Positions 24,313-46,648 of a DNA stretch of 64,000 nucleotides are shown piece by piece (position 1 is the first letter of the stretch; the number at the start of each line of letters is the position of its first letter). Source of the DNA: a virus; the IMG/VR virus record IMGVR_UViG_3300021375_002698, one strand, 5' to 3'. Position numbers and translations under genes: made by a program. The notes beneath the pieces are model-generated. The model made no database searches and had not been told where the DNA came from. It saw only the letters and a program-made list of their open reading frames with translations.

Positions 24313-24581
24313 AAGTCGCTCTCTTTTCTTTTATCTATATATCAAAAAGTTATTCAAAAGTTCTCCCGAAAATTTTTGACCAAAAACTGAAAATTGGTTT
24401 ATCAAAAAGCGCCGCAAACTACTACGAAAAGCTATTTCTTTTCTTTCTACTCTTATCTATATACGTGACTCGTGGTGTTAGGGTAACGAAGAAAATACTT
24501 TTAAAAGTTGTGAGTGAGGAGAAGCGACAGCCGACTTAGGCGCGGCCCGTGTAAATTACTCACTGAGTTTGATATAATATA

Positions 24582-24631
24582 GGGGGCTTTTTAGGGGCCC
24601 AAAAAGGGCTACTAAGAGCCCCGGGGCTTTT
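24582..24631 (+). other. GC-rich hairpin and overlapping 12-bp palindrome at the transcription divergence point
   Basis: GGGGCTTTTTAG-GG-GCCC-AAAAA-GGGC-TA-CTAAGAGCCCC; palindrome AGCCCCGGGGCT at 24617-24628. Confidence 0.8.
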
Positions 24632-24950
24632 GGCCTAGTGTAAAATTTAAAATTTAATTGATATAATCATCATGTAATAAATAATAAATAATAAAATTAT
24701 TTAAAATAAAAAAAATAAAAAATAAAAAAATTAAATATTATAAATCAGATATTAATATTAAATGTGTATTTTTAAAATATAATATATATAATATCAATAT
24801 AATAAATAATAAATAAAAAAATTATTTAAAATAATAAAATTAAATATTATAAAACTATAAAGATAGGAAATGAAGGAAAACGAGTGTAAAACGATGAGAT
24901 CAGATAATACAATCATTATGTAATTAATTAATATCTTTGAAAGGATATGT

Positions 24951-25622
24951 ATGAAACATCCACTAATACAAACTGTAATTGATAATGCTGAAACAAGAAA
25001 ATTCCTTAAAGATCTATTCGAAAAGAATTTATCTGAGGGTAAAGATAAAACTTCTGTTTTAAGATTTGGGGAAGCCTTGATTGATATATTGAAAGATGAA
25101 GTCGGTTCATTAAAAGGAAAACGTGTAACATCTGGAGATACGGGTTGGCGAACTGAAATAAAATCAATGTTTTCGGGACGAGGAAGACAATGGATTAAAG
25201 TTGGAATTGATAAGGTGACACCGAGATTGGATAAATTTGATGAGGATGGAATTGACACATCAGAATATCGAAAATGGATTAAATCTAAGGATTATGCATG
25301 GATTAGATTTAATGGAGCTCGAATTAATGATGGTGTAAATTGTGGAGGATTTGAGATAAGAACATCAGGATCCAAAATCGATCATCCGAAACAGTTATGT
25401 TATATACCGATGGATGAACTCAGTGAGGATAAAATCGAAAGATTATCAGGAACTCCCCATTCTATGAGTTTAGAAGTTATAACAGAAAAAGTTGAAGAGG
25501 AAACGATTGAGGAAACGATTGAGGAAAACACGAATCTGGACGAAGAGATTGATACAGAGGAAACAACTGGGGAAGTTACGAATGAAGACGAAGTAGATGA
25601 AGAAGATATATACTCTGTGTAA
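24951..25622 (+). CDS. Novel 'GRG/AWxRF/GSKxDH' family protein, copy 1, acidic tail
   Basis: MFSGRGRQW, YAWIRF, RTSGSKIDHP, GTPHSMSLE. Confidence 0.85.
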   Translation: MKHPLIQTVIDNAETRKFLKDLFEKNLSEGKDKTSVLRFGEALIDILKDEVGSLKGKRVTSGDTGWRTEIKSMFSGRGRQWIKVGIDKVTPRLDKFDEDGIDTSEYRKWIKSKDYAWIRFNGARINDGVNCGGFEIRTSGSKIDHPKQLCYIPMDELSEDKIERLSGTPHSMSLEVITEKVEEETIEETIEENTNLDEEIDTEETTGEVTNEDEVDEEDIYSV

Positions 25623-25652
25623 TTAGGGTTTGGGTTGGGGATTGATGGATAA

Positions 25653-25745
25653 ACGACGATTAGATAAATGATTTGAAGTTACGATGATTAGATAAATGAT
25701 TTGAAGTTACGATGATTAGATAAATGATTTGAAGTTACGATGATT
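25653..25745. repeat. 28-bp tandem repeat (3.3 copies) upstream of a promoter
   Basis: ACGATGATTAGATAAATGATTTGAAGTT at 25653, 25681 and 25709, plus a partial copy. Confidence 0.95.
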
Positions 25746-25843
25746 CGTATCGTCAAACGTGTAAAAATTTGATTCTTTAATGTATAATATACATGTAAGG
25801 AAGGAAACAATATTTCAAGCAACATCACGATGAAAGGTTTAAT

Positions 25844-26089
25844 ATGATTTTTGTTTCAGTTGTACAACGTGGATATACAGAGTCGCAGTTATATGGTCCA
25901 TTTAAAACAGTTGAAGAAGCGCGTCATGAATTTACTGATAGTGTTACACGAGGAGATGATGGTGACGAAACGAAGTATACATTTTTTGAAGTTAAAAATG
26001 AAGTGATGAAAGAAGTTGGATATGTTTTGTTTTACGATGAGTGTGATGATAAAGATGATTTTAAGGAAGAATATTTTCTAAACGTGTAA
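25844..26089 (+). CDS. Hypothetical protein, paralog of 41025-41246
   Basis: LYGPFKTVEEA...FFEV..VGYVLF; stop lies inside the next GTGTAA. Confidence 0.75.
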   Translation: MIFVSVVQRGYTESQLYGPFKTVEEARHEFTDSVTRGDDGDETKYTFFEVKNEVMKEVGYVLFYDECDDKDDFKEEYFLNV

Positions 26090-26159
26090 TTTATGAAGTT
26101 GTTATATTATAATAACGATGTAAGGATAATTAATCAATTAACGACGAGAGGTTTATTTT

Positions 26160-26243
26160 ATGGATATTTATGGAATTTTATTAACAATCACAGTGACACT
26201 TCCAATGGCTGGGTTTATCTATCTGTTCTTGTTTGAACAATAA
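26160..26243 (+). CDS. 27-aa single-TM peptide (not in ORF track)
   Basis: MDIYGILLTITVTLPMAGFIYLFLFEQ behind promoter 26084 and a GAGG RBS. Confidence 0.6.
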   Translation: MDIYGILLTITVTLPMAGFIYLFLFEQ

Positions 26244-26305
26244 ACGTTGTTTTGAGTTGTCATATTGAAAATATTTTTTAACTACTAACATTAGATGAGT
26301 GAGGT

Positions 26306-26494
26306 TTGTGTATGTTGATTTATAAGATCCAGGCATTTTTGATTGTATTGTTTTTGTCTATATCTTTTCTTGGGTGTATATGTTTAGCTTATGATGCATA
26401 TCTAGGTGACGAAGTTAATGTTGTGTGCTCTGGAGAGGTTTCAAGGAAAGACTGTGATGAGTATAAAGAGACTATTCGTAATCTTGATAGATGA
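26306..26494 (+). CDS. Small membrane protein
   Basis: Hydrophobic N-half; GAGG RBS; stop supplied by the repeat element. Confidence 0.6.
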   Translation: MCMLIYKIQAFLIVLFLSISFLGCICLAYDAYLGDEVNVVCSGEVSRKDCDEYKETIRNLDR

Positions 26495-26525
26495 CTTGAT
26501 GTTACAAGGTTAGGATACGTCATCT
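26489..26525 (+). repeat. Promoter-upstream structured element, best copy
   Basis: AGATGAC-TTGATGTTACAAG-GTTAGGATAC-GTCATCT; related copies at about 26847, 27215, 28444, 28978, 29806 and 25725. Confidence 0.9.
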
Positions 26526-26655
26526 GTGATGTGTAAAATTTATTAATTAAATATTATAATCACCATGTAATAAATAATAAATTATTTAAAAATTAAATAA
26601 AAAAAATATTAATTATTATAAATCTTTAAAATTTATAAATCTGAAAGGATTTAAT

Positions 26656-26850
26656 ATGAGTTCTGTTAAAATTCGTCAAGTATACATTGAATATCGTGAT
26701 ATGTCTGTTAGAGAGTTCGGTTATGACTCTTTTGTAAAAGCTTTATCTCAATTCGTGACAAGAAACGCAGATTTAGGAGATATTGCGATTGCATCTCAGC
26801 TTGCTTACCGTTATCTTACTGAGCAAAGACAACATGATTATATAATTTGA
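26656..26850 (+). CDS. Hypothetical protein
   Basis: Own promoter and GAAAGG RBS. Confidence 0.75.
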   Translation: MSSVKIRQVYIEYRDMSVREFGYDSFVKALSQFVTRNADLGDIAIASQLAYRYLTEQRQHDYII

Positions 26851-26946
26851 TGTGACAAGGCTTGGATACGTTCATCAGCGATGTGTAAAATATAAATTTA
26901 AAATATTATAATATTTATGTAATTAAGGAAAAACGAAAGGCACTAT

Positions 26947-27033
26947 TTGTTAACTAAAGCACAAACTGTTTGCTTTGATATTGTTTTATTAATAATGTTA
27001 ATTACAGTTTTAGTATATATATTATCAACTTAG
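26947..27033 (+). CDS. 28-aa single-TM peptide (not in ORF track)
   Basis: TTG start after GAAAGG; MLTKAQTVCFDIVLLIMLITVLVYILST. Confidence 0.5.
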   Translation: MLTKAQTVCFDIVLLIMLITVLVYILST

Positions 27034-27049
27034 ACTCACGAGTAAATTT

Positions 27050-27235
27050 ATGTTCAATTTATCTAAAGACTTAGTTTCGTTATCATTTAAAGTTAATAAA
27101 CTAAGTTTTATGCAAACAGTATTTTTTGGTTTTAAATTATCAGTCAATCTTTTTGTTCTATCATTTCTGGTATCATTACCTTTTTACATTATTTCTAATG
27201 CTGCTGTGTTTATTGATTTGATGTTACAAGGCTAG
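27050..27235 (+). CDS. Small membrane protein
   Basis: Hydrophobic; last codons DLMLQG* are read from the repeat element. Confidence 0.6.
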   Translation: MFNLSKDLVSLSFKVNKLSFMQTVFFGFKLSVNLFVLSFLVSLPFYIISNAAVFIDLMLQG

Positions 27236-27330
27236 GATACGTCATCTGCGATGTGTAAAATTTAATTTTTAATTGATATAATCTTTATGTAATTAAGGAT
27301 TTAATATAAAATAATCTGAAAGGATTTAAA

Positions 27331-27645
27331 ATGCAGGTTTTAAAAAATACAGCTAATAAAACGGGTTTTTTAAATAAGACTGTTGAACAACAAATCGAAG
27401 CGTTAGCTGAAGATTTTTGTAACGGTATGGACTACGGTTATAAAATCGATTCAGTAAAAAAAGGCAAGAATGGCTTTTACACTGTATCAGTTGTTTGTCC
27501 AACTGGAGCTATGGCTGGTGTTTGTTTTATGTGGAACCCTGAAACTCAAACTGATTATTACCTTGGTGAGCCTATAGGCAATGAAACTTTTGAAATTCAC
27601 CCAGCACTTTTCGAAGATTTCAAAGATTATGTTGTTAACGTGTAA
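27331..27645 (+). CDS. Hypothetical protein
   Basis: Own promoter and RBS; stop lies inside the next GTGTAA. Confidence 0.8.
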   Translation: MQVLKNTANKTGFLNKTVEQQIEALAEDFCNGMDYGYKIDSVKKGKNGFYTVSVVCPTGAMAGVCFMWNPETQTDYYLGEPIGNETFEIHPALFEDFKDYVVNV

Positions 27646-27718
27646 TAAATTATTTGGTGTGATATAATTTTTATGTAATCAAGGATACAAACTAAAACAA
27701 TCTGAAAGGATTTAAAAT

Positions 27719-27928
27719 ATGGAATTTACGTATGAATCAGTTAACGATGCTTTAAATCGTCATCATCATAATCTTTCTGGTTACTGGTCTACTCTAGGCT
27801 GGGACGATAACATTGCGACGGTAGGTTATATGATGGAAGATGGAACTGAAGAAGACGTTACTGTAGATAAACAAGGAATTGTGCATGCTTCAGAAAAAGT
27901 AATGGCAGAGATGCAAGATATAGGTTAA
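27719..27928 (+). CDS. Hypothetical protein, paralog of 30418-30627
   Basis: EFTY.S.N..L..HH.NL...W..LGWD..IATV.Y...EDVT.D.Q..V.ASEK.M. Confidence 0.8.
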   Translation: MEFTYESVNDALNRHHHNLSGYWSTLGWDDNIATVGYMMEDGTEEDVTVDKQGIVHASEKVMAEMQDIG

Positions 27929-27997
27929 CCTACATCGTGTAACTAAGTCTCTATTTGTTTTATAATTAATCACCACCCGCCAATAGAAGGATTCAAT

Positions 27998-28441
27998 ATG
28001 AATTTATCTCAATTAATTAAAAATGCTAAACCAATAAATGATACCACAGTGTTAGGATCAGTCTGGACTGATAATAAAGATTTCTGTTCAACAGAGATGC
28101 TGAAGTCTGGCGAACAAATGTTAACTGATATGGTTGAGTGTCAAGATCTCATTGCAACCTTAGACATCGCAGAAAAAACAAATGTTTCAATACCAAAACT
28201 ATCAGCGAAATTAATTAAACAAGATGATGACTGGGATTTTATCAAAGTAACGATTGAAAGCAAAATACCTGATGAATTTGCTAATCTCATGTGGGATATT
28301 CAAGAAGGTCGTTTCCCATCTTTGAGTTATCGTGAGAAAAAAAGTGAGTATATTACAACAATCAGAACAACATGGAGAATGGATAAATATATTTTATCTG
28401 CTGAAGATAATGTTAATATTATTAATGCAACCTTATCTTAA
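27998..28441 (+). CDS. Hypothetical protein
   Basis: Own promoter and GAAGG RBS. Confidence 0.75.
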   Translation: MNLSQLIKNAKPINDTTVLGSVWTDNKDFCSTEMLKSGEQMLTDMVECQDLIATLDIAEKTNVSIPKLSAKLIKQDDDWDFIKVTIESKIPDEFANLMWDIQEGRFPSLSYREKKSEYITTIRTTWRMDKYILSAEDNVNIINATLS

Positions 28442-28563
28442 TTGATTCGAGTCGTCAAGGTTAGGATACGTCATCTGCGATGTGTAAAATTTAATTTTTA
28501 ATTGATATAATCTTTATGTAAATAAGGATTACAATAACATTTTTAAAAGTAAAGGTATTTAAT

Positions 28564-28983
28564 ATGGAAAACGTTTTATCACTATTTAATATCAATCCTA
28601 AAAACCCAACGCTTTGCGAAACAACAACTCTGGGCCAAGCGAAACGAGGAAATCGTCAGTTTTATGATACTCATCACAAAGTCTCATACATTACATATTT
28701 AAACGGATATGTTCGCCGGGAAATTAAAGCAACCTACGTTTCACCTTATACAACAAGTCAAATATCTTATAAAGTTCAAGATCAGTTCGTTATTAACAAA
28801 AGAACAGCTACAAAACAAACATATAAAGCGCCTAACGGATATGAATACTCATACACATCAACTGGAGTTATCAAAGAGCCTTGTGCCCAAAAGCGAATGG
28901 ATATCATCGATCATCACTCATCTAACTACAGAGGATATAAAGGTCGATTCGCTAAACCAAATTATACTCTAATCTCTAGATGA
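28564..28983 (+). CDS. Basic hypothetical protein, paralog of 31865-32269
   Basis: Shared Y.D..Y..GYVRR.IK...IN motif. Confidence 0.8.
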   Translation: MENVLSLFNINPKNPTLCETTTLGQAKRGNRQFYDTHHKVSYITYLNGYVRREIKATYVSPYTTSQISYKVQDQFVINKRTATKQTYKAPNGYEYSYTSTGVIKEPCAQKRMDIIDHHSSNYRGYKGRFAKPNYTLISR

Positions 28984-29014
28984 CTTGATGTCGCAAGACT
29001 AAGCAACGTCATCT
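28978..29014 (+). repeat. Promoter-upstream structured element, diverged copy
   Basis: AGATGAC-TTGATGTCGCAAG-ACTAAGCAAC-GTCATCT; stems kept, loops changed. Confidence 0.85.
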
Positions 29015-29096
29015 CTTAAGTGTAAAATTTAATTTATAATTGATATAATCTTTATGTAAATAAGGATTCAATCCAAAATAATCTTAAAGGATTAAT

Positions 29097-29474
29097 ATGA
29101 CTACTAAAGACTTACTAAACTCTACGTATTTTCAAATCGATTATCGATCTCTCCCTTCTGGCATCGGTCATATCAACTACGAAAGTGGTGACGTCGTTCT
29201 TGTTACTGAATCTGATTCAGGTCCTAAAGATATGGAATGCGCAAGAAAAGTTATTCGAGAAGAATATCTTCCATCTTCAATTGATCACATCCCATTCAGT
29301 ATGGGTGAGTATTGGGAAGCAGGCCAAGCAGCACTTGAAGCTATCTTAGAAACTCATGATGTTAAATATGTTATCGACTCTGAATTGTCTTATGAAGTGG
29401 AAGAAGATCTTGTAGAAGATATGGAATATCATATCTTTACACTGCAAAACTGGCTCAAAGCTAGAGCAGCCTAA
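29097..29474 (+). CDS. Acidic hypothetical protein
   Basis: Own promoter and RBS. Confidence 0.75.
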   Translation: MTTKDLLNSTYFQIDYRSLPSGIGHINYESGDVVLVTESDSGPKDMECARKVIREEYLPSSIDHIPFSMGEYWEAGQAALEAILETHDVKYVIDSELSYEVEEDLVEDMEYHIFTLQNWLKARAA

Positions 29475-29500
29475 CAAATTTACAAACAAAGGGTTTTATT

Positions 29501-29776
29501 ATGGATCATTTCAGTTTATATGGCAAAGATCAAATTGGGATTTGTAAAGATCATGAGCGTATATTAGAATTCGCTGATTGTATTTTATTATACGGCTACG
29601 CAATAAAAAGTGAGAATATAATTAAAGATATGAATAAATTTATTGACAATTGTTTAACAAAGCTACTAAGCGATAACTTAAACGATGGATGTCTTGTGTT
29701 AGACACTAAACGTGATTATGGAATGTTTAAAAACAAAATACAATTAAATAAAATATTGTTAGAGAGTGTTGTTTAA
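29501..29776 (+). CDS. Hypothetical protein
   Basis: ORF with AAGGG RBS. Confidence 0.65.
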   Translation: MDHFSLYGKDQIGICKDHERILEFADCILLYGYAIKSENIIKDMNKFIDNCLTKLLSDNLNDGCLVLDTKRDYGMFKNKIQLNKILLESVV

Positions 29777-30020
29777 AATAACGTAGTATCAAGCTTATAC
29801 AATAAATGACTTGATGTAACATCGCTTAGAGTCGTCAACGTGTAAATTGTTAAGTTAATTTTGTATAATATAAATTGCATATTATCAGCAATAGAATTTT
29901 TTACTATTACTTTTATTATTTGAATTGTAGATAATGTGAGCAATAAATTTTGTGTAAAATTTAATTTTTAATTGATATAATCATCATGTAATAAATAATA
30001 AAGATGGAAGGATTTAAAAT

Positions 30021-30296
30021 ATGGCTTCAATACGTACAACAAACATCGGAGATATTTTAACCATTAAAAAGATTGCTCAATACAATAAGATCTTAACAAA
30101 TCACAGCGATCATCCTGAATGTGTTTATCCTAAAGTTACAGATGTTAATAGAATTTTAACAGTAGGTTCAAATTTAACTGTCATAGCTAAGGGAAAGTGT
30201 GAAACAAAGTGGGCAGAATCATACGTTACTGTTAAAGATCACAATAACAATTCTTTCGATATCTTATCCAGCGATTTGCGAAGATTCTGCAAGTAA
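30021..30296 (+). CDS. Hypothetical protein
   Basis: Own promoter and RBS. Confidence 0.75.
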   Translation: MASIRTTNIGDILTIKKIAQYNKILTNHSDHPECVYPKVTDVNRILTVGSNLTVIAKGKCETKWAESYVTVKDHNNNSFDILSSDLRRFCK

Positions 30297-30417
30297 CTCT
30301 CATTGTGTAAAATTTAATTTTTGGTTGATATAATCACCATGTAATTAATAATAAATTATTTAAAAATAATATTAATTATATAAATCTTTAAAATCTATAA
30401 ATCTGAAAGGATTTAAT

Positions 30418-30627
30418 ATGAAATTTGAATTTACTTATAACTCTATTAATCATATTTTATATAATCATCATCCTAATCTATGTTCATGGATGTCTTTAGG
30501 ATGGGATAAAAAAATTGCTACTGTACAATACAAACTGAAAGATAATACTGTTGAGGATGTCACAATCGATCGTCAAGCCAATGTAACTGCATCAGAAAAG
30601 TTAATGGTTGAGATAAATGAAAGATAA
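30418..30627 (+). CDS. Hypothetical protein, paralog of 27719-27928
   Basis: Full-length alignment with 27719-27928. Confidence 0.8.
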   Translation: MKFEFTYNSINHILYNHHPNLCSWMSLGWDKKIATVQYKLKDNTVEDVTIDRQANVTASEKLMVEINER

Positions 30628-30706
30628 TAACTTTTAAAGTGTAAAATTTAATTTTTGGTTGATATAATCATCATGTAATTAATAATAAATCTGAAAGGAT
30701 TTAAAA

Positions 30707-31459
30707 ATGGATAATTTAAATAATAAAGATTCTAACTCTAACTCTAACATCCACGAGGTTCTTATGAGCAACGAAACTCAAATCATCGAATTATTTCAGT
30801 CTTTTCTTTCTAACGGAGGCTCTCCTAAAGTTACAAGCTTTAAAAAGCATCTTGATTCACTCATTAATTCAAACATTAAACCTCTTTGCGTTCGTTCTGG
30901 AAAAGCACCAGACGGAGATGATTGGAGATCGGTGCTCAAAGCTTTATTCGGAGGTCGAGGTAAAAAATGGGTTCAAGTCTCTATAGATAACATCATTCCA
31001 ACTCTTGATCAATTTGACGCTGAATATTATGACACTTTAAAATACAGAGAGTTTATTAAAACTGCAGGATTCGCTTGGATTCGTTTCGCCGGTCCTAGAA
31101 TGGATATGAATATCCAATCAGCTGCTTTCGAAGTTAGAACTAACGGATCTAAAATTGATCACCCTAAACAACTCCATTATATCCCAGTAGATAAAATTGA
31201 AGAGCTCACTGTTACTTTAAACGGAACTCCTCATTCACTAAAACTAGAATCAAACAACACTGAAGTTGAAACTGAAACTGAAACTGAAGTTGTAACTGAA
31301 ACTGAAGTTGTAACTGAAGTTGAAACTGAAACTGAAACTGAAACTGAAACTGAAACTGAAGTTGAAACTGAAACTGAAGCTGATTCAGAATACACAATAG
31401 AAATGTTAGATGAAGACTTCTCAGACTTATATACAGATGAAGAGCTATTTAACGTATAG
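30707..31459 (+). CDS. Novel 'GRG/AWxRF/GSKxDH' family protein, copy 2, ET-repeat acidic tail
   Basis: LFGGRGKKW, FAWIRF, RTNGSKIDHPKQL, GTPHSLKLE. Confidence 0.85.
   Translation: MDNLNNKDSNSNSNIHEVLMSNETQIIELFQSFLSNGGSPKVTSFKKHLDSLINSNIKPLCVRSGKAPDGDDWRSVLKALFGGRGKKWVQVSIDNIIPTLDQFDAEYYDTLKYREFIKTAGFAWIRFAGPRMDMNIQSAAFEVRTNGSKIDHPKQLHYIPVDKIEELTVTLNGTPHSLKLESNNTEVETETETEVVTETEVVTEVETETETETETETEVETETEADSEYTIEMLDEDFSDLYTDEELFNV
31259..31381. repeat. Hexamer (GAAACT/GAAGTT) microsatellite encoding Glu-Thr repeats
   Basis: Direct reading of the sequence. Confidence 0.9.
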
Positions 31460-31592
31460 AATGACGTTATCATGCATTTCTTGATTAATATCATTGTTTA
31501 AAAGATATCAGGTAATGATATTAAATGTGTAAATTAAAATGACTACTTATTATAATAACAATGTAAATCAAATTAAAAAAGGATTTTTCTTA

Positions 31593-31799
31593 ATGTTTTA
31601 TTCTCATCTACAATCATTTGCGATTGGAATTATCATCGCTTCTATAACATTTGTAATGTTTCTTCATCACAAAGAAAGCGAGGCGCAAATTAAAAAGACA
31701 AATGAAATGATTAAATATACTAAAGACGTGTGTATAAATCAAAGACCCAAGAATACAGAAACAAAACTTTGCGAGTTCTTAAAAAAGAAGTATTTATAA
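31593..31799 (+). CDS. Small membrane-anchored protein
   Basis: Start moved to MFYSHL after AAAGG; one TM helix. Confidence 0.65.
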   Translation: MFYSHLQSFAIGIIIASITFVMFLHHKESEAQIKKTNEMIKYTKDVCINQRPKNTETKLCEFLKKKYL

Positions 31800-31864
31800 G
31801 TGTAAATACAATCTTAATTTAATATAATTCATATAACAGCTAATTTAATAAAGGCATAAAATTT

Positions 31865-32389: not shown

Positions 32390-32444
32390 CTTATTTATCT
32401 AGTCTTTTAGATGAATAAATTAAATATCTTATGAAAGGTTCATT

Positions 32445-32684: not shown

Positions 32685-32739
32685 AACATAAACAAGGTAA
32701 ATTCTTATCTACAACCTTCAATAAAATGTAGATACACAT

Positions 32740-38204: not shown

Positions 38205-39197
38205 ATGAAAAACAATGCTGTTTGTTCTTTTATTCTAAATATTGCTATTTTACAATTTACTGGTTGCTCTTCCTTAGTAGACTCTGGACCAGAGCCGCTT
38301 TCTAAAGAGGAGTTTGTAAAAGAAATTACTACAAATATTTTAAGAAACATTGACAAAGAAAATGAAGTTTCTATCAATGTTTCGCAATTAGAAAAAGAAG
38401 AGAATGGTTCCATTGGGTCAAAGGGTGAAACAGGTCCAGTAGGTGAAACAGGCCCAAGAGGTGAAACAGGTCCAAGAGGTGAAACAGGTCCAAGAGGTGA
38501 AACAGGTCCAAGAGGTGAAACAGGTCCAAGAGGTGAAACAGGTCCAAGAGGTGAAACAGGTCCAGTAGGTCCAGCGCCTAACATTGAAGAAATACTCTCA
38601 GAATTACAATTGCAAAACAATACACAACAATTGCCACAAGGTCTTGAACCTTTCTCAACATATAAAATAACAGATGAAGGTGAGATTGTTGGAAAGTTAA
38701 TTAGCAGATATCATAATTTTAGAAGATACAGCTACAGCACAGACCAGCATACAATGGACATGTGTGAAAACTGGAACATTGCAGTTTATAATGAAGAAGA
38801 ACAGCAGGTTAAGAAAATTCATTTTGATACATGTATTAATCAAAAACTTTCAACTTACATGGGATGGGATCCTTGTAGATCTTATACAGGATGGTGGAAG
38901 CGACATTCTAATTCATACTTGCAAGAATATACAACACCAGAAAATGCAAGATGTTCTCATGAGGTTACAGGTGAAAGAGACAATACTTATGAATACTTCA
39001 AAGACATAATGCAAAGATGGGTCATGTCAGCAGGTAAGCATATTAAATTAAACAATTCTTACTATAAAGTCACAGATACTGAAAGAGTTTATACTGAATT
39101 TGTAAATGGTTCGAATACAGTTGGAGTTCCTCACAAACTTGTCCTTATTTTAGAGTATGTTGGTGAAGAAATAGAAGGTAATGAGTATATTCATTAA
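38205..39197 (+). CDS. Collagen-like repeat lipoprotein
   Basis: Lipobox FTGC; Gly-X-Y run of GETGP(R/V) encoded by an 18-bp tandem repeat at about 38423-38572. Confidence 0.85.
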
Positions 39198-39248
39198 TTA
39201 GATAAACATGACTATTATTTAAACTATTTTACATTGTAAGGAGCAATA

Positions 39249-39797
39249 ATGAAGTATGTTGTTTATATTGTTTTGATGACGTTATCTGCTACAGGCTTCT
39301 GCAAAAAGAGTCTGGAAAAATTTAATTGCAGCAGTCAATGTGGTATCGTTAAGAACAAAAGACTTAAGTTGGGAGATACTGTGATTTATCATGGTGATAT
39401 GTATGTATTAAGTGATTTAATAAATAGTAAGACTTTGTATCCAAGACTAACTTTAGCAATAATTGATAAAAGTTGTGATAATGCTTATATCAACTGGTTA
39501 ACTTTGAACAAAGACAAGATTGAGACGATTGATATTAAAAAATACAAATTTGGCAGATTTTTGGAGGAAGAGGCTGAAATTAAAATTCACTTGATGAAAG
39601 TTAAAGAGAACAATCCAGATACTGAATATGTTGTTGTTATAAGCTCAATGTATTTGTTTCGTTTTTATATAGACTTACATAACTTTAATCTTAAAAAATC
39701 AAAGTTATTAACTTTTGGAAGTAAATCTAAGAAAGTATCATTCAAGTATTTTAGTTTGTTTAACAAAACAATTGATGTTACTCATGAGTGTAAATAA
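39249..39797 (+). CDS. Secreted hypothetical protein
   Basis: Signal peptide; AAGGAG RBS. Confidence 0.7.
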   Translation: MKYVVYIVLMTLSATGFCKKSLEKFNCSSQCGIVKNKRLKLGDTVIYHGDMYVLSDLINSKTLYPRLTLAIIDKSCDNAYINWLTLNKDKIETIDIKKYKFGRFLEEEAEIKIHLMKVKENNPDTEYVVVISSMYLFRFYIDLHNFNLKKSKLLTFGSKSKKVSFKYFSLFNKTIDVTHECK

Positions 39798-39875
39798 ATT
39801 ATTATATATTGTATAATATAAGTGTGGGGAAGGAAATAATAATTTTATTTTTAACAGCTTTTGAAAGGTTTTAGA

Positions 39876-40133
39876 ATGTATGATTTTGAAAGTTTTAGAG
39901 ATGAGTATAGATTTTTAATTTTAGGATATATTGCAAGTGGTGAGAAAAGTTATCATGATGTATGTGAGCTTATTAATGTTTGTGACTTATACAAAGATCA
40001 TTTAATTTCTGCAGATGAGATCATAATCATGATTTTAGAGTTGGAAGTAGATCAAGATATTATATACAATGAAGACTCTGATACATGGGCATTGAATTCA
40101 CTAAGTGTAAATATTGAATATTGTGATGTATAA
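39876..40133 (+). CDS. Acidic winged-helix-like protein, paralog of 43133-43345
   Basis: RDE(Y/F)R..IL.YI...I.ELE..Q.(I/V)I...D.D.W. Confidence 0.7.
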   Translation: MYDFESFRDEYRFLILGYIASGEKSYHDVCELINVCDLYKDHLISADEIIIMILELEVDQDIIYNEDSDTWALNSLSVNIEYCDV

Positions 40134-40189
40134 TTCTTATGTAAGGAATTATTCAATAAATTTTTTAACAACTTTTTTGGAGTTACGTT

Positions 40190-40489
40190 ATGAGTAGAAG
40201 ATATACTAATTTATTAATTGATGATATTGAGAATAGTTTGTTAACAAGAAAATTTATTCTTGACAATCTATTAGAATGGTTAAGTGAAGATGAAGTTGAA
40301 GAGTTTGCTAAAAGCAAAATTTACACAGAAGATGAAGATGCAGATGAAGATGAAGTTGAAGACATGTACACAGTTTGGGTTGGTGGTACTGAAGTTGTTG
40401 ATAATTATGTTTCTTATAAAACAGCTAAAGAAATAAGGAACAAATTCAAGAGTGAAGGATACGATGACGTTATTATATCTATAGCTTAA
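40190..40489 (+). CDS. Acidic hypothetical protein
   Basis: YTVWVGGTEV...GYDDV motif. Confidence 0.75.
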   Translation: MSRRYTNLLIDDIENSLLTRKFILDNLLEWLSEDEVEEFAKSKIYTEDEDADEDEVEDMYTVWVGGTEVVDNYVSYKTAKEIRNKFKSEGYDDVIISIA

Positions 40490-40522
40490 AGACTATATTT
40501 GATAATTATAGGGAATGTTTAA

Positions 40523-40987
40523 ATGAAATTTAAAAAAATTAAAGTATCACTTCTCTTCTGTATCTGCATATTGCTTGATGTAAGTTATACTATGTCTAGA
40601 CCTGAGATAAACTGTAAAATAGAAGTCAAAAAAGGCGAGTGGAGTAATTGTGAGGCAGAGAAGAAAAGGAAGAAAAAAGTTTTGTACAAATTTTCTAGAC
40701 TGTTTTTAGACTGCATAAACGAGAAAATAGATAAAGATGATTTGACAAAGCAAAAAACATTTGTAAATTGTGAATCGTTTTTTGCTTTGTATTACTTTTA
40801 TAAATTCAAAAAGCCGTGGGATCAATCATCTGCTTTTTTTAATCTTAAAGATGTTATTAAAAAAATGATTGATGATGAGCATGAAGGTGTGGTTCTTTGT
40901 GTTTATAAAGATACATATTGTTTTAGAACAGCTCCAGTAGGAAGCTTAAGAAACAATTGTCAGATTCATCCTGTTTTATGCAAATAA
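40523..40987 (+). CDS. Cys-containing putative secreted protein
   Basis: Signal-like N-terminus. Confidence 0.6.
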   Translation: MKFKKIKVSLLFCICILLDVSYTMSRPEINCKIEVKKGEWSNCEAEKKRKKKVLYKFSRLFLDCINEKIDKDDLTKQKTFVNCESFFALYYFYKFKKPWDQSSAFFNLKDVIKKMIDDEHEGVVLCVYKDTYCFRTAPVGSLRNNCQIHPVLCK

Positions 40988-41024
40988 TTTTAGAAAGTTT
41001 TTTATTTTTCTTGAAAGGTTATGT

Positions 41025-41246
41025 ATGTTTTTTGTTACGTTTTCTGTTAAAGACTCTTATGAAGTTCAAGATCTTTTTGGTCCTTTTATTAGTTTAGATG
41101 AAGCAAAAGAAAAAGTTATAGGTGATGGATACAGTATAGATGGATCTTACTTTTCTTTTTTCAGGATAAGTCATGGAGGTTCAGATAAGCTGTTAAAAGT
41201 TGGACATGTTTTATTTCATAATAAAAGTATAGAAGAGATTTTTTAA
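41025..41246 (+). CDS. Hypothetical protein, paralog of 25844-26089
   Basis: LFGPFISLDEA...FFRI..VGHVLF. Confidence 0.75.
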   Translation: MFFVTFSVKDSYEVQDLFGPFISLDEAKEKVIGDGYSIDGSYFSFFRISHGGSDKLLKVGHVLFHNKSIEEIF

Positions 41247-41329
41247 GTAAGGAGAAAGATATACGATGGAGAAAATGTAGTAGTAGTAAATTATATCGAT
41301 GATTTGTAATTTAAAAAAGGATTATTAGA

Positions 41330-41617
41330 TTGAGTATTTTAGTAAATAAATTTCCGTTACATGATGGTATAAGAGTGATTCCTGAGAAAACATCTATTAA
41401 ATATACTAAAACTTACACGGGTTATATACCTTATCATGGTCGTATTGTATATGATATTACATGTGAAGTTGCAGGACATGATTTTGTAATTTCATGTTCA
41501 AAAGATGTAGAAGATAATATGGATTTGATTCGGGTAAACAATATTATACGTAATGACTTTTTATTACCGCTTTATTGGAAAGACGTGTTTGATGAAAAGT
41601 TTCCGTTAATCGTGTAA
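41330..41617 (+). CDS. Hypothetical protein
   Basis: AAGG RBS; stop lies inside the next GTGTAA. Confidence 0.7.
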   Translation: MSILVNKFPLHDGIRVIPEKTSIKYTKTYTGYIPYHGRIVYDITCEVAGHDFVISCSKDVEDNMDLIRVNNIIRNDFLLPLYWKDVFDEKFPLIV

Positions 41618-41695
41618 TATTTTTTATTAATATATTATAATATCATTGTAAGGAATTATTAAATAATATTTTTAACAGCTTTTGAAAGGCTTAAT

Positions 41696-41974
41696 ATGAG
41701 ATGTAAAAATGAAATGGGAAATAGAGCTTTAGGTATGTATGTTAACAGTGAACATGTAGATGTGTCTAAAGAGTTAATAATTGATATAGTTCGTCAAATA
41801 GTAAAGAACTGTCATAATGATGGCTTTGATGAGATTGAAGCTGATGATTATTCTGAAGCAGGAATGATTAAACTATTTATGGAAGTTGCTAATGAAATAG
41901 GATATCATAGATTACAAAGAGACTTGCAAAGTTTGTCTACAGGTTATAACTTCTGTTGTAGTAATTGTAAGTAG
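41696..41974 (+). CDS. Hypothetical protein, duplicate of 36848-37108
   Basis: High protein and DNA identity, including the leader. Confidence 0.85.
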   Translation: MRCKNEMGNRALGMYVNSEHVDVSKELIIDIVRQIVKNCHNDGFDEIEADDYSEAGMIKLFMEVANEIGYHRLQRDLQSLSTGYNFCCSNCK

Positions 41975-42013
41975 GAATAATATTTTCAACAACTTTTGAA
42001 AGGAGACTTTATT

Positions 42014-42823
42014 ATGGCTAGAAACTTGAAAGTTTGGTCGTCATTAAACTACAGCAAAGAAAGCAAAAGTAGAAGTAATCAATACCAAAACACTATGTCT
42101 TCATTATTATTAAGCCTTCGCAATGATAACAATGAGTACAGTAGAATGAGCAATAAGAATACAAGTCCTGACGTAATAAAAGCATATAAACATGCTATCA
42201 ACAAGAGAATAGCAAAGTTAAGAGAGTTAAACAAGGGTAAAAACTGCCCTTTCGAAAGAATTCAAGAAGTCGAATATGGGAAGAAAAAAGTGGAGTATAA
42301 GGAGACTTTGTTTTTTATAGAATACCCGCAACCAAATTCTTCCTTAGCATATCAAAGGTCACATATAATTGACTTTAATGTTTTAAGCAAATTAAATAAA
42401 AGTGTTGTCTATGGAAAATTATCGTTATATAGTTTAGCGTTATTACTTTGGACTTTAGAGATGACATGCTGTTATGCAGATTCAACTAAAGAAAACAAAG
42501 AGCACCCTAAAAACAAAGACATCTCAGTAAGCAGTGGGTGGGAAAATGAACTGCCAGGAATTAATAATGTGAATGTTTATTTGAAAGAAGCAGGCGGTAA
42601 AAGTAGATTAATAAGCACAAAGGAATTCTTAGATATTAGAAAAGAGCTGTACGAAATTAAAGAATCGTTGACTAATGATATCAAAAAAAATCTAAACAAT
42701 ACAGAAGAGATATTCAACAAGTACAGTAGGATTTTTTCTATGATATCTTTGTCTAGTGGTATAGCAATGGACTCTAGTATATTAGATAAAATAGTTAATA
42801 ATATAGTTGATTTAATGATATAG
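42014..42823 (+). CDS. Hypothetical protein (start corrected)
   Basis: ATG after a leader variant; QRSHIID..CC motif could bind metal. Confidence 0.7.
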   Translation: MARNLKVWSSLNYSKESKSRSNQYQNTMSSLLLSLRNDNNEYSRMSNKNTSPDVIKAYKHAINKRIAKLRELNKGKNCPFERIQEVEYGKKKVEYKETLFFIEYPQPNSSLAYQRSHIIDFNVLSKLNKSVVYGKLSLYSLALLLWTLEMTCCYADSTKENKEHPKNKDISVSSGWENELPGINNVNVYLKEAGGKSRLISTKEFLDIRKELYEIKESLTNDIKKNLNNTEEIFNKYSRIFSMISLSSGIAMDSSILDKIVNNIVDLMI

Positions 42824-42877
42824 TTGATTTATCTGTCTACAGTTTTGTTTTTAACAACTTTTGCGGAGTCTATTTGT

Positions 42878-43030
42878 ATGAATAAAAAAGATAAGATTAG
42901 AATTGTTAAACATTCACTTACTGTTATAGAAGAGATGCAAGTTAGAATAATAGTTGTATTTTTGTTTGTACTGACTATCGTTATAACTTTTTGTCTTGCT
43001 ACTCTTTTATATAACTATTTATTTAGTTAA
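42878..43030 (+). CDS. Small membrane protein
   Basis: GGAG RBS; C-terminal TM. Confidence 0.55.
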   Translation: MNKKDKIRIVKHSLTVIEEMQVRIIVVFLFVLTIVITFCLATLLYNYLFS

Positions 43031-43132
43031 GATAAAATAAATTTATAAGTGTAATATGCAATATTGCAATGTATAATATACATGCAAGGAATTATTAAAT
43101 AATATTTTTAACTTCATTTGAAAGATTTAATT

Positions 43133-43345
43133 ATGACAGTTTTAAAAGACATAAGAGATGAGTTTCGTTCTAGCATTTTAGAGTATATTCAAGATAATGA
43201 CTGTTCGCTTGATGAGATTATTGAGCAAGTACCGCATGTTCCAATGGATGCTTTGTATAGTATTCTTGACGAATTAGAAGAAGAACAAGAAGTTATACAT
43301 GATGTTGATCAAGATGTCTGGAGCATACATCCAGCAAACTTATAA
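43133..43345 (+). CDS. Acidic winged-helix-like protein, paralog of 39876-40133
   Basis: Own promoter; aligns with 39876-40133. Confidence 0.75.
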   Translation: MTVLKDIRDEFRSSILEYIQDNDCSLDEIIEQVPHVPMDALYSILDELEEEQEVIHDVDQDVWSIHPANL

Positions 43346-43415
43346 AGTTTATTATTCGTATGATACACATATTGTATCGTCAATTATTTCATTCTATTTA
43401 AAAAAGGTAAGAAAC

Positions 43416-43757
43416 ATGTTCGAAGTAAATATTACACATAAACATTACTCAGAAGATATAATCAATTTATTATGTTCAGGTTTTGAAGGCGGAATTAATT
43501 ATTGGGCGTCTGTTGTGCTTGAAGGCGGAAAGCATTGGTACGATATTGAGAATCCTGATTGGTGCGTTGCTGTATATGATAATGAAACTGATGACTTGTT
43601 AGGAAGACTTAATATATCATCACTTCAGTCTGGATTAAAGACAATGCATGATATTGCGCCTAGTCATTATAACAACTTGTTAAAAGAGGATTGTGATGCT
43701 ATTACAGGTGATGTATTTATACAGTGTTGTTTGTTTGATGAAATAGTTTACGGTTAG
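43416..43757 (+). CDS. Conserved-looking phage hypothetical protein
   Basis: FEGGINYWA...DAITGDVFIQ..LFDEIVYG; start corrected. Confidence 0.8.
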   Translation: MFEVNITHKHYSEDIINLLCSGFEGGINYWASVVLEGGKHWYDIENPDWCVAVYDNETDDLLGRLNISSLQSGLKTMHDIAPSHYNNLLKEDCDAITGDVFIQCCLFDEIVYG

Positions 43758-43760
43758 GAA

Positions 43761-44078
43761 TTGTTAATGTTTTTAACTACAAAGTTAAACCTTGTTGTTA
43801 CTAGCAATGGTAAAGACTATTATGAATTGCCTGCTAACTCTAACATAAAACTTTTAAGTGTAGAAGACTTTTACGATGTTAATAGCGAAACTATTCACTA
43901 TAATTTAAATTGTAATATTATGAATGGAGGATTTATAATAAACTGTAAACGATTTAGCAAAGAAAGTGATTTGGTTGTTAGAAACTCTGGTTATAGCAGT
44001 GTTTATCTTAATGATTTTCTTAGAGCGTGGTGTGATGTGTTTAAAGAAGAAGTACCAGATATTCTTCGTGTAAAATAA
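43761..44078 (+). CDS. Hypothetical protein
   Basis: ORF whose end overlaps the next promoter. Confidence 0.6.
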   Translation: MLMFLTTKLNLVVTSNGKDYYELPANSNIKLLSVEDFYDVNSETIHYNLNCNIMNGGFIINCKRFSKESDLVVRNSGYSSVYLNDFLRAWCDVFKEEVPDILRVK

Positions 44079-44151
44079 AAAATTGTAGTGTATAATCTAT
44101 ATGCAAGGAATTATTAAATAATATTTTTAACTGCTTTTGAAAGGTTTAATT

Positions 44152-44580
44152 ATGAGCAAGACTCCTATCCCTAATATTCTTAGTAATATAACTGCTGAAG
44201 ATGCATGTGATATGATTTACAACAGAATGTTAACAGATCTTCAATATCAGGAAAAGATTATAGTTAATGAGCAATATATGGCTGATGTTTTTTTAGATCC
44301 AGGTGAAAATACTCGATATCGTTTTAAAGAACTATATTCAAACAAAAACAACATCCCAAAAGACATTGATGATTATGAAGATGTGTACGAAGAATATCCA
44401 GCACTTTCTTTTATTGAAGAAAGAGTTTGTGAGAAAGATGGTGTTGAAATAGTTATAAATATGGGATTAAACTTTATGAGTGTGTATCATAGATACTTTG
44501 ACTGTGATATGCCCAAAGAAGAAACAGCTTATGGAAAGTTTATTGATATTATCAATGAAGGTGGCATTTACGCAATTTAA
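44152..44580 (+). CDS. Acidic hypothetical protein (start corrected)
   Basis: Promoter plus leader element. Confidence 0.75.
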   Translation: MSKTPIPNILSNITAEDACDMIYNRMLTDLQYQEKIIVNEQYMADVFLDPGENTRYRFKELYSNKNNIPKDIDDYEDVYEEYPALSFIEERVCEKDGVEIVINMGLNFMSVYHRYFDCDMPKEETAYGKFIDIINEGGIYAI

Positions 44581-44602
44581 AATAAAGGAATAATTATAGT
44601 GA

Positions 44603-45076
44603 ATGTTATTTAAAAGTAATAGAAAGAGATATAAGAATAATAAGATGCTTAATTTTCATTTCAAGAACCACAAAAAAGAAGAAAACTGGATAAATTCATT
44701 TATAAATTCAGGTTACTCGTTCAACAAAGATGACTGTTGTGATGAAGTTGCTGTTATTATCTGTAAAGAGCTAATAGATAGAAAAGTAATAGACTTTGAA
44801 GTCATCGAAGGTTGGTTATGGGTTGACAATAAAAGAAAGCCGATTTCACATACGTGGATAGAGTTTAATGATGGAATGGTAATTGACCCTGTGTGCAGAA
44901 TCAATTTAATGGAAAAGCATACTGAAGTGATTAGAGTTGATGGTCATACAAAAGTAAAGTATATACAAGGAAGTAAATTAAAAGACTCTTTTGAGTGGTT
45001 TGAAGAAAAAGTATACAACAGTCAAGAGTATATTGATAAGTATACATTATTAGAGCTGTTTAATAACATTAACTAA
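44603..45076 (+). CDS. Transglutaminase/papain-like fold protein
   Basis: DCCDEVA...HTWIE..GMVIDP (C-H-D pattern). Confidence 0.55.
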   Translation: MLFKSNRKRYKNNKMLNFHFKNHKKEENWINSFINSGYSFNKDDCCDEVAVIICKELIDRKVIDFEVIEGWLWVDNKRKPISHTWIEFNDGMVIDPVCRINLMEKHTEVIRVDGHTKVKYIQGSKLKDSFEWFEEKVYNSQEYIDKYTLLELFNNIN

Positions 45077-45101
45077 TCTTTTTACTTTTAAAACTAGGAA
45101 T

Positions 45102-45341
45102 TTGTTCATGGTAAATAAAAAAATTAGTCAAACAAATCAATTTCAAAACATTCTATTTAAAGTACAAGTATTTGAATCTAATGGAAGTTGTATAGAAATG
45201 CATTGCCTGGGCAAAAGCGATGTTTATAGTTTTATTGAAGAACAAAAGTTATTGATTGGTTTGTCAAGATATCAAGGATACAAATGTGTTCCTATAAAAT
45301 TATCGATATTTGCAAAAAGTGTTTTTAATAAAAAAAGTTAA
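45102..45341 (+). CDS. Hypothetical protein
   Basis: ORF. Confidence 0.55.
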   Translation: MFMVNKKISQTNQFQNILFKVQVFESNGSCIEMHCLGKSDVYSFIEEQKLLIGLSRYQGYKCVPIKLSIFAKSVFNKKS

Positions 45342-45373
45342 AACGATATAAGTTTATTTAAAAAAGGATTACT

Positions 45374-45613
45374 ATGAAAATTGCAACGTGGAAGATTCCT
45401 GAAAGCTTTTCAGCAGATAGAAATGTCTCAATGACTTGCAGAATTAAACATTATAGATTTGACATGAATCATTTCTTGATTGACAACACGCAAATTGTAC
45501 CAACAGTGCAGACAACAAAAAACGTATTGTATTCATACGACTTCTTCAGCGCTGTATTAGCTGTTGATGAAAACTCTTATGTAAAGCATACTGAATTTAA
45601 TTCAGCACCTTGA
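45374..45613 (+). CDS. Hypothetical protein
   Basis: AAGG RBS. Confidence 0.65.
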   Translation: MKIATWKIPESFSADRNVSMTCRIKHYRFDMNHFLIDNTQIVPTVQTTKNVLYSYDFFSAVLAVDENSYVKHTEFNSAP

Positions 45614-45709
45614 CATACCAATTGTGTAAAAAAAAATATAATTTATTTATAATTTTTTTGTTAGGAATTATAAATAAATTCAAACAATTAATTAAAAAAG
45701 GAATTTAAA

Positions 45710-45868
45710 ATGGATCTTTTATTTACATACGCTTTTTTTATATTTGTATTCGCTTCGTTTATTATTACTATTTTATTTATAGACAGCAATCCAGAGGTAT
45801 CTTTGCTTATTTGGTGTTGCGTTGTTTTATATACAGTAATAGATATCTTAAGAAAGAGTGAATTGTAA
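45710..45868 (+). CDS. 52-aa 2-TM peptide (not in ORF track)
   Basis: Behind promoter 45624 and an AAGG RBS; MDLLFTYAFFIFVF... Confidence 0.6.
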   Translation: MDLLFTYAFFIFVFASFIITILFIDSNPEVSLLIWCCVVLYTVIDILRKSEL

Positions 45869-45964
45869 AAGTATCTTAGTGTATATGCATTTAAGCTATG
45901 TTGAGTATGTGTATAAAAAAGTATGTGATGTACATAAAATACCAGTTTTTTGTAGGACTAAATA

Positions 45965-46213
45965 ATGATTAAAATCAAGCAAAACATGACATCTATAAAA
46001 AGGTTATTAAAAATGAACGTTAATCAAGAAGAAATAAAAAAGCTCAGTTTTTCATTGAACAATTTCATAGAAAACAAGAGTTGTATAGTTGACATTACAA
46101 TTAACAATAAGTCTTTAAAAATAAAGCGCAGTGATGACTTATATTTTATAGAAGATTACGGATGGACAAGCGCGTTTGGAATATATTGCAAAATCACGAA
46201 CAAGTATGATTAA
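45965..46213 (+). CDS. Hypothetical protein
   Basis: ORF; true start may be the internal ATG near 46013. Confidence 0.55.
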   Translation: MIKIKQNMTSIKRLLKMNVNQEEIKKLSFSLNNFIENKSCIVDITINNKSLKIKRSDDLYFIEDYGWTSAFGIYCKITNKYD

Positions 46214-46498
46214 AGAATAAATCTTAAGTGTGCTGAATTATATTGTAGACTTAAATAAACTATAAGTAAGTTATTTAAATTAAAAACAGCGCAGTAAGAA
46301 GTATCTTAGACTTAAAAGTACGATATAGTTGTTACACTTAAAGATAAACTTTGTTTTAATAAAGCTTAACAATTTTTTATTTGAGTAAACAAACTTTGAA
46401 TTTTCAAATAAAAAGACTGTTGTACAATTAAAGAGTGTAATTTTTTATAATATTTTTTATAATATTATTGTAAATAAAAAAAGTCATTAGGAGAAAAA

Positions 46499-46648
46499 AT
46501 GTTAGACTTATTAATTTTAATATTTATGATGTCAACTGCTTATGTAGCAGGTATTACTGTTTACATTAAACATGATGATATAAAGAAATCAGTACTTGCA
46601 TTTTTAGTTATTCAGTTAACTTTCGTATATTGTTCTTTTTACATATAA
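46499..46648 (+). CDS. 49-aa 2-TM peptide (not in ORF track)
   Basis: Behind promoter 46435 and an AGGAG RBS. Confidence 0.6.
   Translation: MLDLLILIFMMSTAYVAGITVYIKHDDIKKSVLAFLVIQLTFVYCSFYI

Follow-up and report, generated by a model that had tools for sequence, protein, structure and literature searches.

The window analysed here, a stretch of 64,000 nucleotides from the virus record IMGVR_UViG_3300021375_002698 of IMG/VR, harbored about 55 small, mostly orphan genes lying on one strand behind about 30 predicted copies of a single promoter (GTGTAA-N17/18-TATAAT), many of them joined to repeated translation leaders. This array is probably an early-type hyperplastic region, similar to those carrying promoter-early stem-loop elements (PeSLs), in which genes are shuffled by homologous recombination at the promoter and leader repeats. 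Once related contigs were aligned, the array appeared mosaic and its gene content variable between relatives, and its flanks were collinear. At the clean junctions found in relatives, the double homology was the promoter/leader block itself. The analogy with PeSLs proposed in a first-pass annotation of the same DNA holds.

Promoter and leader repeats of the array

The motif GTGTAA-N17/18-TATAAT was found in 31 exact copies in the window, against 0.14 expected from shuffled sequences, and the array of promoter-gene units described in the first-pass annotation is thus real. All copies but one (30/31) were on the + strand, spanning 24549-53033, with 27 of them within 24549-46463. Allowing one mismatch added only about four + strand sites, and the motif is therefore unusually sharp. 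The spacer between GTGTAA and TATAAT was 18 nt long in 23 copies and 17 nt in 7, and the extended form TATAAT-N4-DTGYRR was present in 23/30 copies, the last block being exactly ATGTAA in 15. These putative promoters precede small orphan open reading frames (ORFs), and almost every unit has its own. The arrays and their repeated parts were distributed as follows.

24313..24950, + strand: divergent intergenic region at the array start; its promoters lie at 24549 and 24638, with a further one (one mismatch) at 24884, and its leader is extremely AT-rich.
24549..31828, + strand: array A; behind each of its 17 exact promoters come N4-ATGTAA and a leader with an AAAGGA-type Shine-Dalgarno sequence at its end.
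25653..25755, + strand: left half of the upstream element (28 nt) in three tandem copies, continued by a full element just before promoter 25759.
26487..29837, + strand: upstream element TGAYTYGA-N18-CGTCA (about 31 nt), six copies at 26487, 26838, 27209, 28438, 28976 and 29802, ending 2-8 nt before GTGTAA.
26638..30704, + strand: leader A (AATCTGAAAGGATTTAA, then 2-4 nt and ATG), seven copies at 26638, 27313, 27699, 29080, 30001, 30400 and 30688.
34543..34590, + strand: orphan leader B, then a mini-ORF of six codons whose stop is the TAA of the following GTGTAA.
34585..44154, + strand: array B, with eight promoters, including 34585, 36761, 39788, 40105 (variant leader), 41612, 43049 and 44068.
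45624..46463, + strand: final two promoters of the array, 45624 and 46435, whose leaders are divergent; beyond them gene order is again collinear with the related contig G001.
50131..53033, + strand: promoters 50131, 50773 and 53005, also of this class, in the collinear part of the + strand block.

Units of array A mostly contained one small orphan ORF each, and those of array B one to five genes. Array A leaders were AT-rich and ended in AATCTGAAAGGATTTAA, the leader A copies being located at 26.6-30.7 kb. Array B boundaries read GTGTGGGGAAGGAAAT.. or ATGYAAGGAATTATT.. followed by leader B (TTTTAACWGCTTTTGAAAGG), which was found in 13 copies at 34.5-44.1 kb. Six of these copies lacked a promoter (35033, 35250, 35634, 37566, 38177 and 41984) and each preceded a gene or small ORF. 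Both leaders ended in a GAAAGG/AAAGGA Shine-Dalgarno sequence located 5-9 nt ahead of the ATG. The orphan leader B at 34543..34590 is probably a deletion scar.

Three pairs of intergenic blocks, which the first-pass annotation had called near-identical, were clearly similar at 83% (128 nt), 92% (91 nt) and 80% (89 nt) identity, a level that the term overstates, with flanks at background identity (49-60%, random pairs averaging 52%). The paralogues that it had placed at scattered positions were all recovered (24951/30707, 27719/30418, 25844/41025, 36848/41696, 39876/43133 and 41330/43767).

We infer the early timing and the polymerase specificity of the array promoters. Early timing is suggested because the -35 box shares four of six positions with the T4 early box GTTTAC, to which it is closer than to the sigma-70 box TTGACA, because novel ORFs and tRNA genes likewise lie behind the early promoters of T4-like phages (PMC1524935), and because a scan for canonical sigma-70 (TTGACA) promoters displayed no excess here. 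A literature search on GTGTAA and TATAAT in phage returned nothing relevant.

The upstream element of array A has conserved ends and a variable centre, different copies being able to form different hairpins of 4-6 bp. Its folding ranged from z = -3.5 to +1.7 with no U-tract following, and it may represent a weak RNA structure or a protein-binding site. No intrinsic terminator was predicted on the + strand between 24.3 and 44.3 kb, array B boundaries contained no stem-loop, and a repeat search around 24.5-34.3 kb gave no long inverted repeat or terminal-repeat signature. Hairpins of leaders A and B hiding the Shine-Dalgarno sequence were considered and dropped, the folds (-0.6 to -3.3 kcal/mol) showing no difference from shuffles.

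A Shine-Dalgarno-like AAGGA/AAGGAGG was present within about 10 nt of the presumed transcription start (TATAAT +5 to +15) at most array promoters. At this position it is a real ribosome site in two related viral contigs, G003 and G004 (also named L031 and L032), while in the window a longer leader containing a second ribosome site comes after it, and it may act there as a 5' mRNA stabiliser or a ribosome standby site. ATGTAA is unlikely to be a start-stop mini-ORF, as G003 and G004 read CATAAGGAGG there, which is a transcript start plus a Shine-Dalgarno sequence.

Right after the first array promoter, a GC-rich structured piece was found at 24579-24640 (-31.7 kcal/mol, z=-2.7, in a 29% GC genome). 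GC-rich palindromes (..GAGCCCCGGGGC..) were also located just before the first array promoter of G003 (L031 about 9030-9071) and G004 (L032 about 9140-9179). In both contigs, promoters of the form GTGTAA-N17-TATAAT-N4-CATAAGGAGG begin just past the palindrome, and both contigs stop inside the array. The GC-rich piece may mark where the early block begins, as a small RNA, a bidirectional terminator or an origin-type element.

Gene content and junctions in related contigs

The window, with a GC content of about 29%, encoded an XPD/DinG-type helicase, an ATP-dependent ligase, PhoH and Ig-like head-decoration or fibre proteins. The - strand carried the genes at 1-24312 and 56-64 kb, and the + strand those at 24.9-55.7 kb. 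Megablast of the whole array against 50,697 deposited phage records gave no match. The closest helicase match (86% amino-acid identity) was found in an uncultured viral contig, G001 (IMGVR_UViG_3300030118_007125), a 53.5-kb contig for which CheckV estimated a completeness of 21%, hence a genome of roughly 250 kb. The carrier is best explained as an uncultured AT-rich marine phage of jumbo size. Helicase identity to the window was 62-65% for G003 and G004 and 47% for G006 and G007. The latter two, both without promoter array, encoded a Gp23-family capsid gene and a RecA-family gene (E=1e-64). Among the relatives, the Gp23 and RecA families were found only in these two, and the carrier, from an uncultured marine lineage, is no more than a candidate T4-type phage.

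The promoter class was absent from the more distant G006 and G007 and present in G001, G003 and G004, which makes it a property of the clade. In G001, the -35 box varied between GTGTAT, GTGTAA and GTGCAA, and was accompanied by an upstream ..CGTCA element with a variable hairpin and by AT-rich leaders. G001 was collinear with the window, gene for gene, at 6960-22042 and 47736-55919. Inside the array (24.5-46.5 kb), only about one third of window ORFs had a G001 homologue, and their order was scrambled: homologues of 27719, 25844, 33755, 31865, 43299, 37105, 45102 and 35045 lay in G001 at 25.2, 25.5, 30.6, 32.9, 34.6, 38.5, 39.0 and 40.2 kb, respectively. One slot could be compared directly between the two genomes.

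30305..30706, + strand: cassette slot, with promoter copies 30305 and 30639 (51/52 nt identical) around the gene of 69 amino acids (aa) at 30418-30627.

The orthologous slot of G001 (30021/g28896 to 30707/g29539) harbored its own promoter pair (48/48) around an unrelated 72-aa gene. A slot with identical promoter pairs would be the residue of a single crossover between a circle bearing a promoter and a resident promoter, or of gene conversion.

Closer relatives were retrieved by scanning metagenomes with the leader B pattern, which yielded 26 contigs, nine of them sharing 65-98% nucleotide identity with parts of the array. They come from marine metagenomes (e.g., Tara, Ga0098049, Ga0163110, Ga0233427). 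Contigs at 80-97% nucleotide identity displayed cassettes deleted, replaced, inserted or re-ordered, with crossovers located in the promoter/leader repeats. The following window features took part in the junctions found in these contigs.

34998..35057, + strand: truncated boundary, keeping the part after the -10 box and leader B, with no -35 box or spacer; the promoter is complete here in L057.
35243..35280, + strand: leader B, left partner of the L057 junction.
36815..36852, + strand: leader B, right partner of the L057 junction and left end of a 294-nt duplication (36814-37107 / 41662-41955, 84% identical).
41612..43135, + strand: cassette locus with three alleles, between boundaries 41612 and 43049.
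44125..44144, + strand: leader B of gene 44152, within which a homologue of window gene 29501 is inserted in L053.

In L057, window position 35280 was joined to 36815, both sides being 95-98% identical to the window. The switch of partner falls within the leader B of about 30 nt common to both sites, and genes 35277-35630 and 35803-36723 together with promoter 36761 are therefore missing. The same contig displayed an unrelated 78-aa gene in place of gene 34666-34998, with breaks in leader B on the left and in the boundary on the right, the latter being the one that is complete in L057 and truncated in the window. More partner switches inside leader copies were found in L034, L041 and L049. In L034, the homologue of gene 35277 precedes that of 34666, which is the reverse of the window order. 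The downstream neighbour of gene 35277 differed in six arrangements (window, L049, L040, L034, L035 and L041), and the gene was preceded by a full promoter in three of these and by the leader alone in the other three.

The 41612/43049 locus contained three genes in the window, none in L049, which has one hybrid boundary there, and a single unrelated gene (130-133 aa) in L040 (Tara) and L053 (Ga0163110). One allele (41330 homologue, promoter, 44603-like gene, promoter, 43133 homologue) was present in two independent assemblies. L049 corresponds to L053/L040 minus one cassette, with flanks at roughly 95% identity or more (an estimate from match tracks); the double homology is the boundary of about 90 nt, whose two copies are 87% identical in L053. 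This cassette loss matches the ORF192 event drawn for RB49/phi1 (PMC2839356). The boundaries themselves were mosaics, one spacer being found with different leaders and one leader with different spacers (e.g., W_41612 and L049_6313, with a common spacer and different leaders), and crossover points ranged from the promoter spacer to the Shine-Dalgarno sequence.

Breakpoints, stop codons and alternative explanations

Comparison with the nine relatives placed 62/101 ends of homology blocks in motif-bearing intergenic zones, which make up about 15% of the sequence; part of this enrichment merely reflects gene-sized blocks ending between genes. By our own count, nine of the ten cleanly resolvable events were located in repeats.

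In repeats, L057 and L041: the L057 deletion, the L057 replacement, the L041 tandem paralogues, and the L041 join of 35277 to a 39876 remnant.
In repeats, others: the L034 re-ordering, the L049 join of 35277 to a 41696-like gene, the L049 cassette deletion, the replacement at window 41612-43049, and the L053 insertion.
At repeat-free junctions: the 43416 indel.

Several points weigh against shuffling at the repeats. Gene adjacencies were broken or kept in 40/6 cases with the motif versus 34/10 without it, which is not a significant difference (Fisher p=0.28). One of the two indels between L053 and L040 (gene 43416) lies at repeat-free junctions with an overlap of about 12 nt. The retrieval of relatives by the exact leader B pattern favours leader-adjacent junctions, and several of these relatives are short contigs ending at repeats. 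Promoter activity, early timing and recombination are, moreover, all predictions from sequence. Given the adjacency test and the 43416 indel, the repeats are frequent, not sole, crossover sites. The claim of the first-pass annotation that genes enter, leave and duplicate through recombination at the boundaries is largely borne out in relatives, with breakpoints that are not confined to the motifs.

The same annotation had regarded the boundaries as supplying the stop codon of the upstream gene. The ten stop positions that it gave (26087, 27643, 41615, 39795, 44076, 40131, 26492, 26848, 27233 and 28981) were all true stops of upstream ORFs, but as a feature of the system the idea did not survive. 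Only 6/28 upstream genes read into the core from the -35 to the -10 box, and three of these six use the TAA of GTGTAA as their stop, against an expected one in three, so that stop overlap was not above chance (binomial p=0.32). The other 22/28 stop 1-222 nt before GTGTAA, upstream of the -35 box. The core closed all three reading frames in 24/27 copies, compared with 16.5 +/- 2.5 in shuffles, and random sequence of the same composition does so about 61% of the time. Since the copies are homologous, this closure is effectively one observation, and it was rejected as evidence of design. By consensus arithmetic, the N18 and N4 spacings put the TAAs of GTGTAA, TATAAT and ATGTAA in three different frames, which is regarded as a coincidence of TAA-containing motifs in a genome favouring TAA (47/72 stops). 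The stop overlap follows as a side effect from the tight packing of genes in AT-rich DNA with TAA-containing motifs. Published PeSL figures likewise open with the stop codon of the upstream gene (PMC2839356).

The non-significant adjacency test, the clean 43416 indel at a motif-less junction with its short overlap, and the biased search for relatives would all be expected if the repeats were regulatory signals only, gene turnover proceeding by illegitimate or microhomology recombination anywhere between genes, with junctions falling in repeats because these fill the intergenic space. Roughly half of the array B intergenic regions carry the motif, which also fits such a scheme. It is nevertheless unlikely, as the double homology of the closest pairs is a repeat of 30-90 nt between flanks of 95-98% (L057) or roughly 95% and more (L049 versus L053/L040), nine of the ten resolvable events fall in motifs, identical promoter pairs surround different cargo at one slot in two genomes, and boundaries are mosaics of spacers and leaders. 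Chimeric assemblies, with the assembler jumping between near-identical repeats of 30-60 nt in a mixed population, could account for single short contigs. Contigs of relatives (G003, G004, L034, L035, L041 and L057) tend to end in or at repeated boundaries, including the four short ones (L034, L035, L041 and L057, 1.3-1.8 kb), and G003 and G004 stop inside their arrays, so repeats do tangle assemblies and the arrays fragment metagenome assemblies. As a general explanation of the rearranged junctions this is very unlikely, since the arrangement of L040 and L053, distinct from that of the window, recurs in independent projects, and since the succession of a 46663-like gene, promoter and 35060 homologue is found in L052 and L057, and in L056 with one extra gene in between. 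Many unique genes lie between conserved boundaries in the long contigs L049 and L040 and in viral contig G001, and the window itself displays scars, truncated boundaries and dispersed paralogues.

An integron-type or nuclease-assisted capture platform, in which a recombinase or homing endonuclease reads the boundary and the boundary is designed as a three-frame stop, could draw on the excess of three-frame closure and on the three TAAs in different frames, and Arbiol et al. leave a helper recombinase open for PeSLs (PMC2839356). We consider it extremely doubtful. Neither a tyrosine or serine recombinase nor any integrase or resolvase turned up among the scanned window ORFs of at least 150 aa or in seven related viral contigs, a profile search with PF00589 gave no match in these seven contigs, and crossovers vary in position. 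The three-frame statistic treats homologous copies as independent while random closure is already common, and few genes end in the core. The integron analogy drawn in the first-pass annotation, taken as integrase-driven capture, is thus not supported, all the more as nearly every cassette has its own promoter. A further reading takes the promoter-leader block as a self-contained expression and exchange module (three-frame stop, promoter, 5'-proximal Shine-Dalgarno-like stabiliser and leader) that is actively mobilised between co-infecting phages, with transfer that might proceed, for example, as packaged mini-circles or via an unrecognised nuclease or recombinase. Such a module, which we hold to be quite improbable, would be a phage counterpart of the integron for early, possibly anti-defence, genes.

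General homologous recombination at the promoter and leader repeats is best supported because no tyrosine or serine recombinase was found in the scanned window ORFs or the seven related contigs and crossover positions vary. The regulatory blocks would be kept alike since they are required as transcription and translation signals. Comparison with relatives shows them as dispersed direct repeats of 30-125 bp, hence probable substrates for general homologous recombination within one genome and between co-infecting relatives. By crossing over in these blocks, a genome would lose the cassette lying between two repeats, take up or exchange cassettes, acquire duplicated promoters on either side of new cargo, and change its gene order, with gene expression left intact. 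The executor would be the general recombination machinery of the phage or the host, possibly via excised circles as for PeSLs, and a site-specific recombinase would not be needed. Arbiol et al. came to the same conclusion on the mechanism of PeSLs, pointing out that less than 50 bp of homology suffices in the T4 system (PMC2839356).

Cargo genes and comparison with known systems

Most of the cargo was orphan, 18 of the 20 largest array proteins having no Pfam or PHROG family. The sole informative match was a collagen-type repeat in the protein encoded at 38205-39197 (330 aa), whose G-X-Y repeat derives from a 9/18-nt tandem array (38383-38598) and which has early-type orphan genes around it; the repeat alone accounts for its tail-fibre matches in PHROG. 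A paralogue family of four members (24951-25622, 30707-31459, 50837-51388 and 53062-53679) shared 29-41% identity with no Pfam or PHROG match, and member 30707 contained a long acidic T-E/V-E repeat (31241-31408). Another tandem repeat (15 nt, about seven copies, 36114-36233) was located within the 306-aa orphan gene 35803-36723. Arrays A and B are separated by a region containing tRNA genes.

32317..32981, + strand: tRNA genes Met-CAT, Arg-TCT and Lys-TTT, between arrays A and B.

A search against Rfam displayed nothing beyond these three tRNAs, and the region is also conserved in L052, L040 and L046. A non-coding, G/T-rich stretch of 350 nt (34232-34584), which includes the orphan leader B and its mini-ORF, also lies between the two arrays. 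The left flank contained genes resembling auxiliary ones, encoding a peptidase C39-like protein (14901-15698), a protein with a weak adenylate/guanylate cyclase match (16097-16939), an OMP-decarboxylase family protein (18857-19495) and a PAP2 phosphatase (20622-21302).

These results would extend PeSL-type shuffling, until now known from cultured T4-type phages alone, to an uncultured marine lineage, and provide evidence from natural populations, with several alleles at one cassette slot in independent ocean metagenomes. They indicate that a short translation leader without promoter can serve as an exchange point. The cargo constitutes a large pool of small orphan genes, presumably early ones. 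In other phages, genes for host takeover and anti-defence belong to this class, and the conserved boundaries could act as handles for recovering the pool from metagenomes. The repeats also explain assembly breaks inside the array in these phages.

PeSLs were described in the T4-type phages RB49/phi1, PST/T4 and nt-1/KVP40 (Arbiol et al. 2010, PMC2839356; Comeau et al. 2014, PMC4122927). As in these phages, many copies of one strong early-type promoter (here a predicted one), followed by a Shine-Dalgarno sequence and a start codon, are located between genes of an ORFan-rich hyperplastic region, with upstream stop codons in or beside the element and tRNA genes nearby. In the window, this takes the form of 27 exact promoter copies in 22 kb with orphan cargo, in a mosaic region between collinear flanks, and of leaders A and B, which supply the 3' Shine-Dalgarno sequence and start codon. 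Both also share indels, replacements and displacements between relatives, with crossovers inside the element and degraded 'half' elements beside indels. For PeSLs, crossovers falling between the -10 box and the Shine-Dalgarno sequence are documented, as are 'half' PeSLs close to indels (PMC2839356, PMC4122927), and here crossovers occur inside the elements without being confined to them. The two systems differ in the -35 box, which is GTGTAA here and TTGACA, TTTACW or TTGYVH in PeSLs. They also differ in the terminator stem-loop, of which array B has none, whereas the upstream element of array A folds weakly and lacks a U-tract, with no intrinsic terminator detectable. In addition, a promoterless leader repeat of 20-35 nt also serves as a crossover site here, and the carrier belongs to an uncultured marine lineage, those of PeSLs being cultured T4-type phages.

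T4 early promoters have the consensus -35 GTTTAC and -10 TATAAT (Nolan et al. 2006, PMC1524935). The array promoters resemble them in their near-perfect TATAAT, their spacing of 17-18 nt, four of six -35 positions and their location before novel small ORFs and tRNA genes. They differ from them by a G at position 3 and an A at position 6 of the -35 box, and by the conserved ATGTAA/ATAAGGA block at the presumed transcription start.

With integrons, the array shares a linear arrangement of unrelated small genes, repeated boundaries and a cassette content that varies between relatives. In contrast to integrons, it displays no IntI-type recombinase among the ORFs scanned and no attC-like sites, nearly every unit has its own promoter rather than depending on a single Pc, and exchange points are variable. 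The host-takeover module of SPO1 and the pre-early region of T5 consist of dense, very small early genes, nearly each with a strong promoter, at the end of a gene block. The array is like them in this layout, with no sequence similarity to them. Shuffling in the array is thus a variant of the mechanism already described for T4-type phages, now in an unstudied lineage of marine phages.

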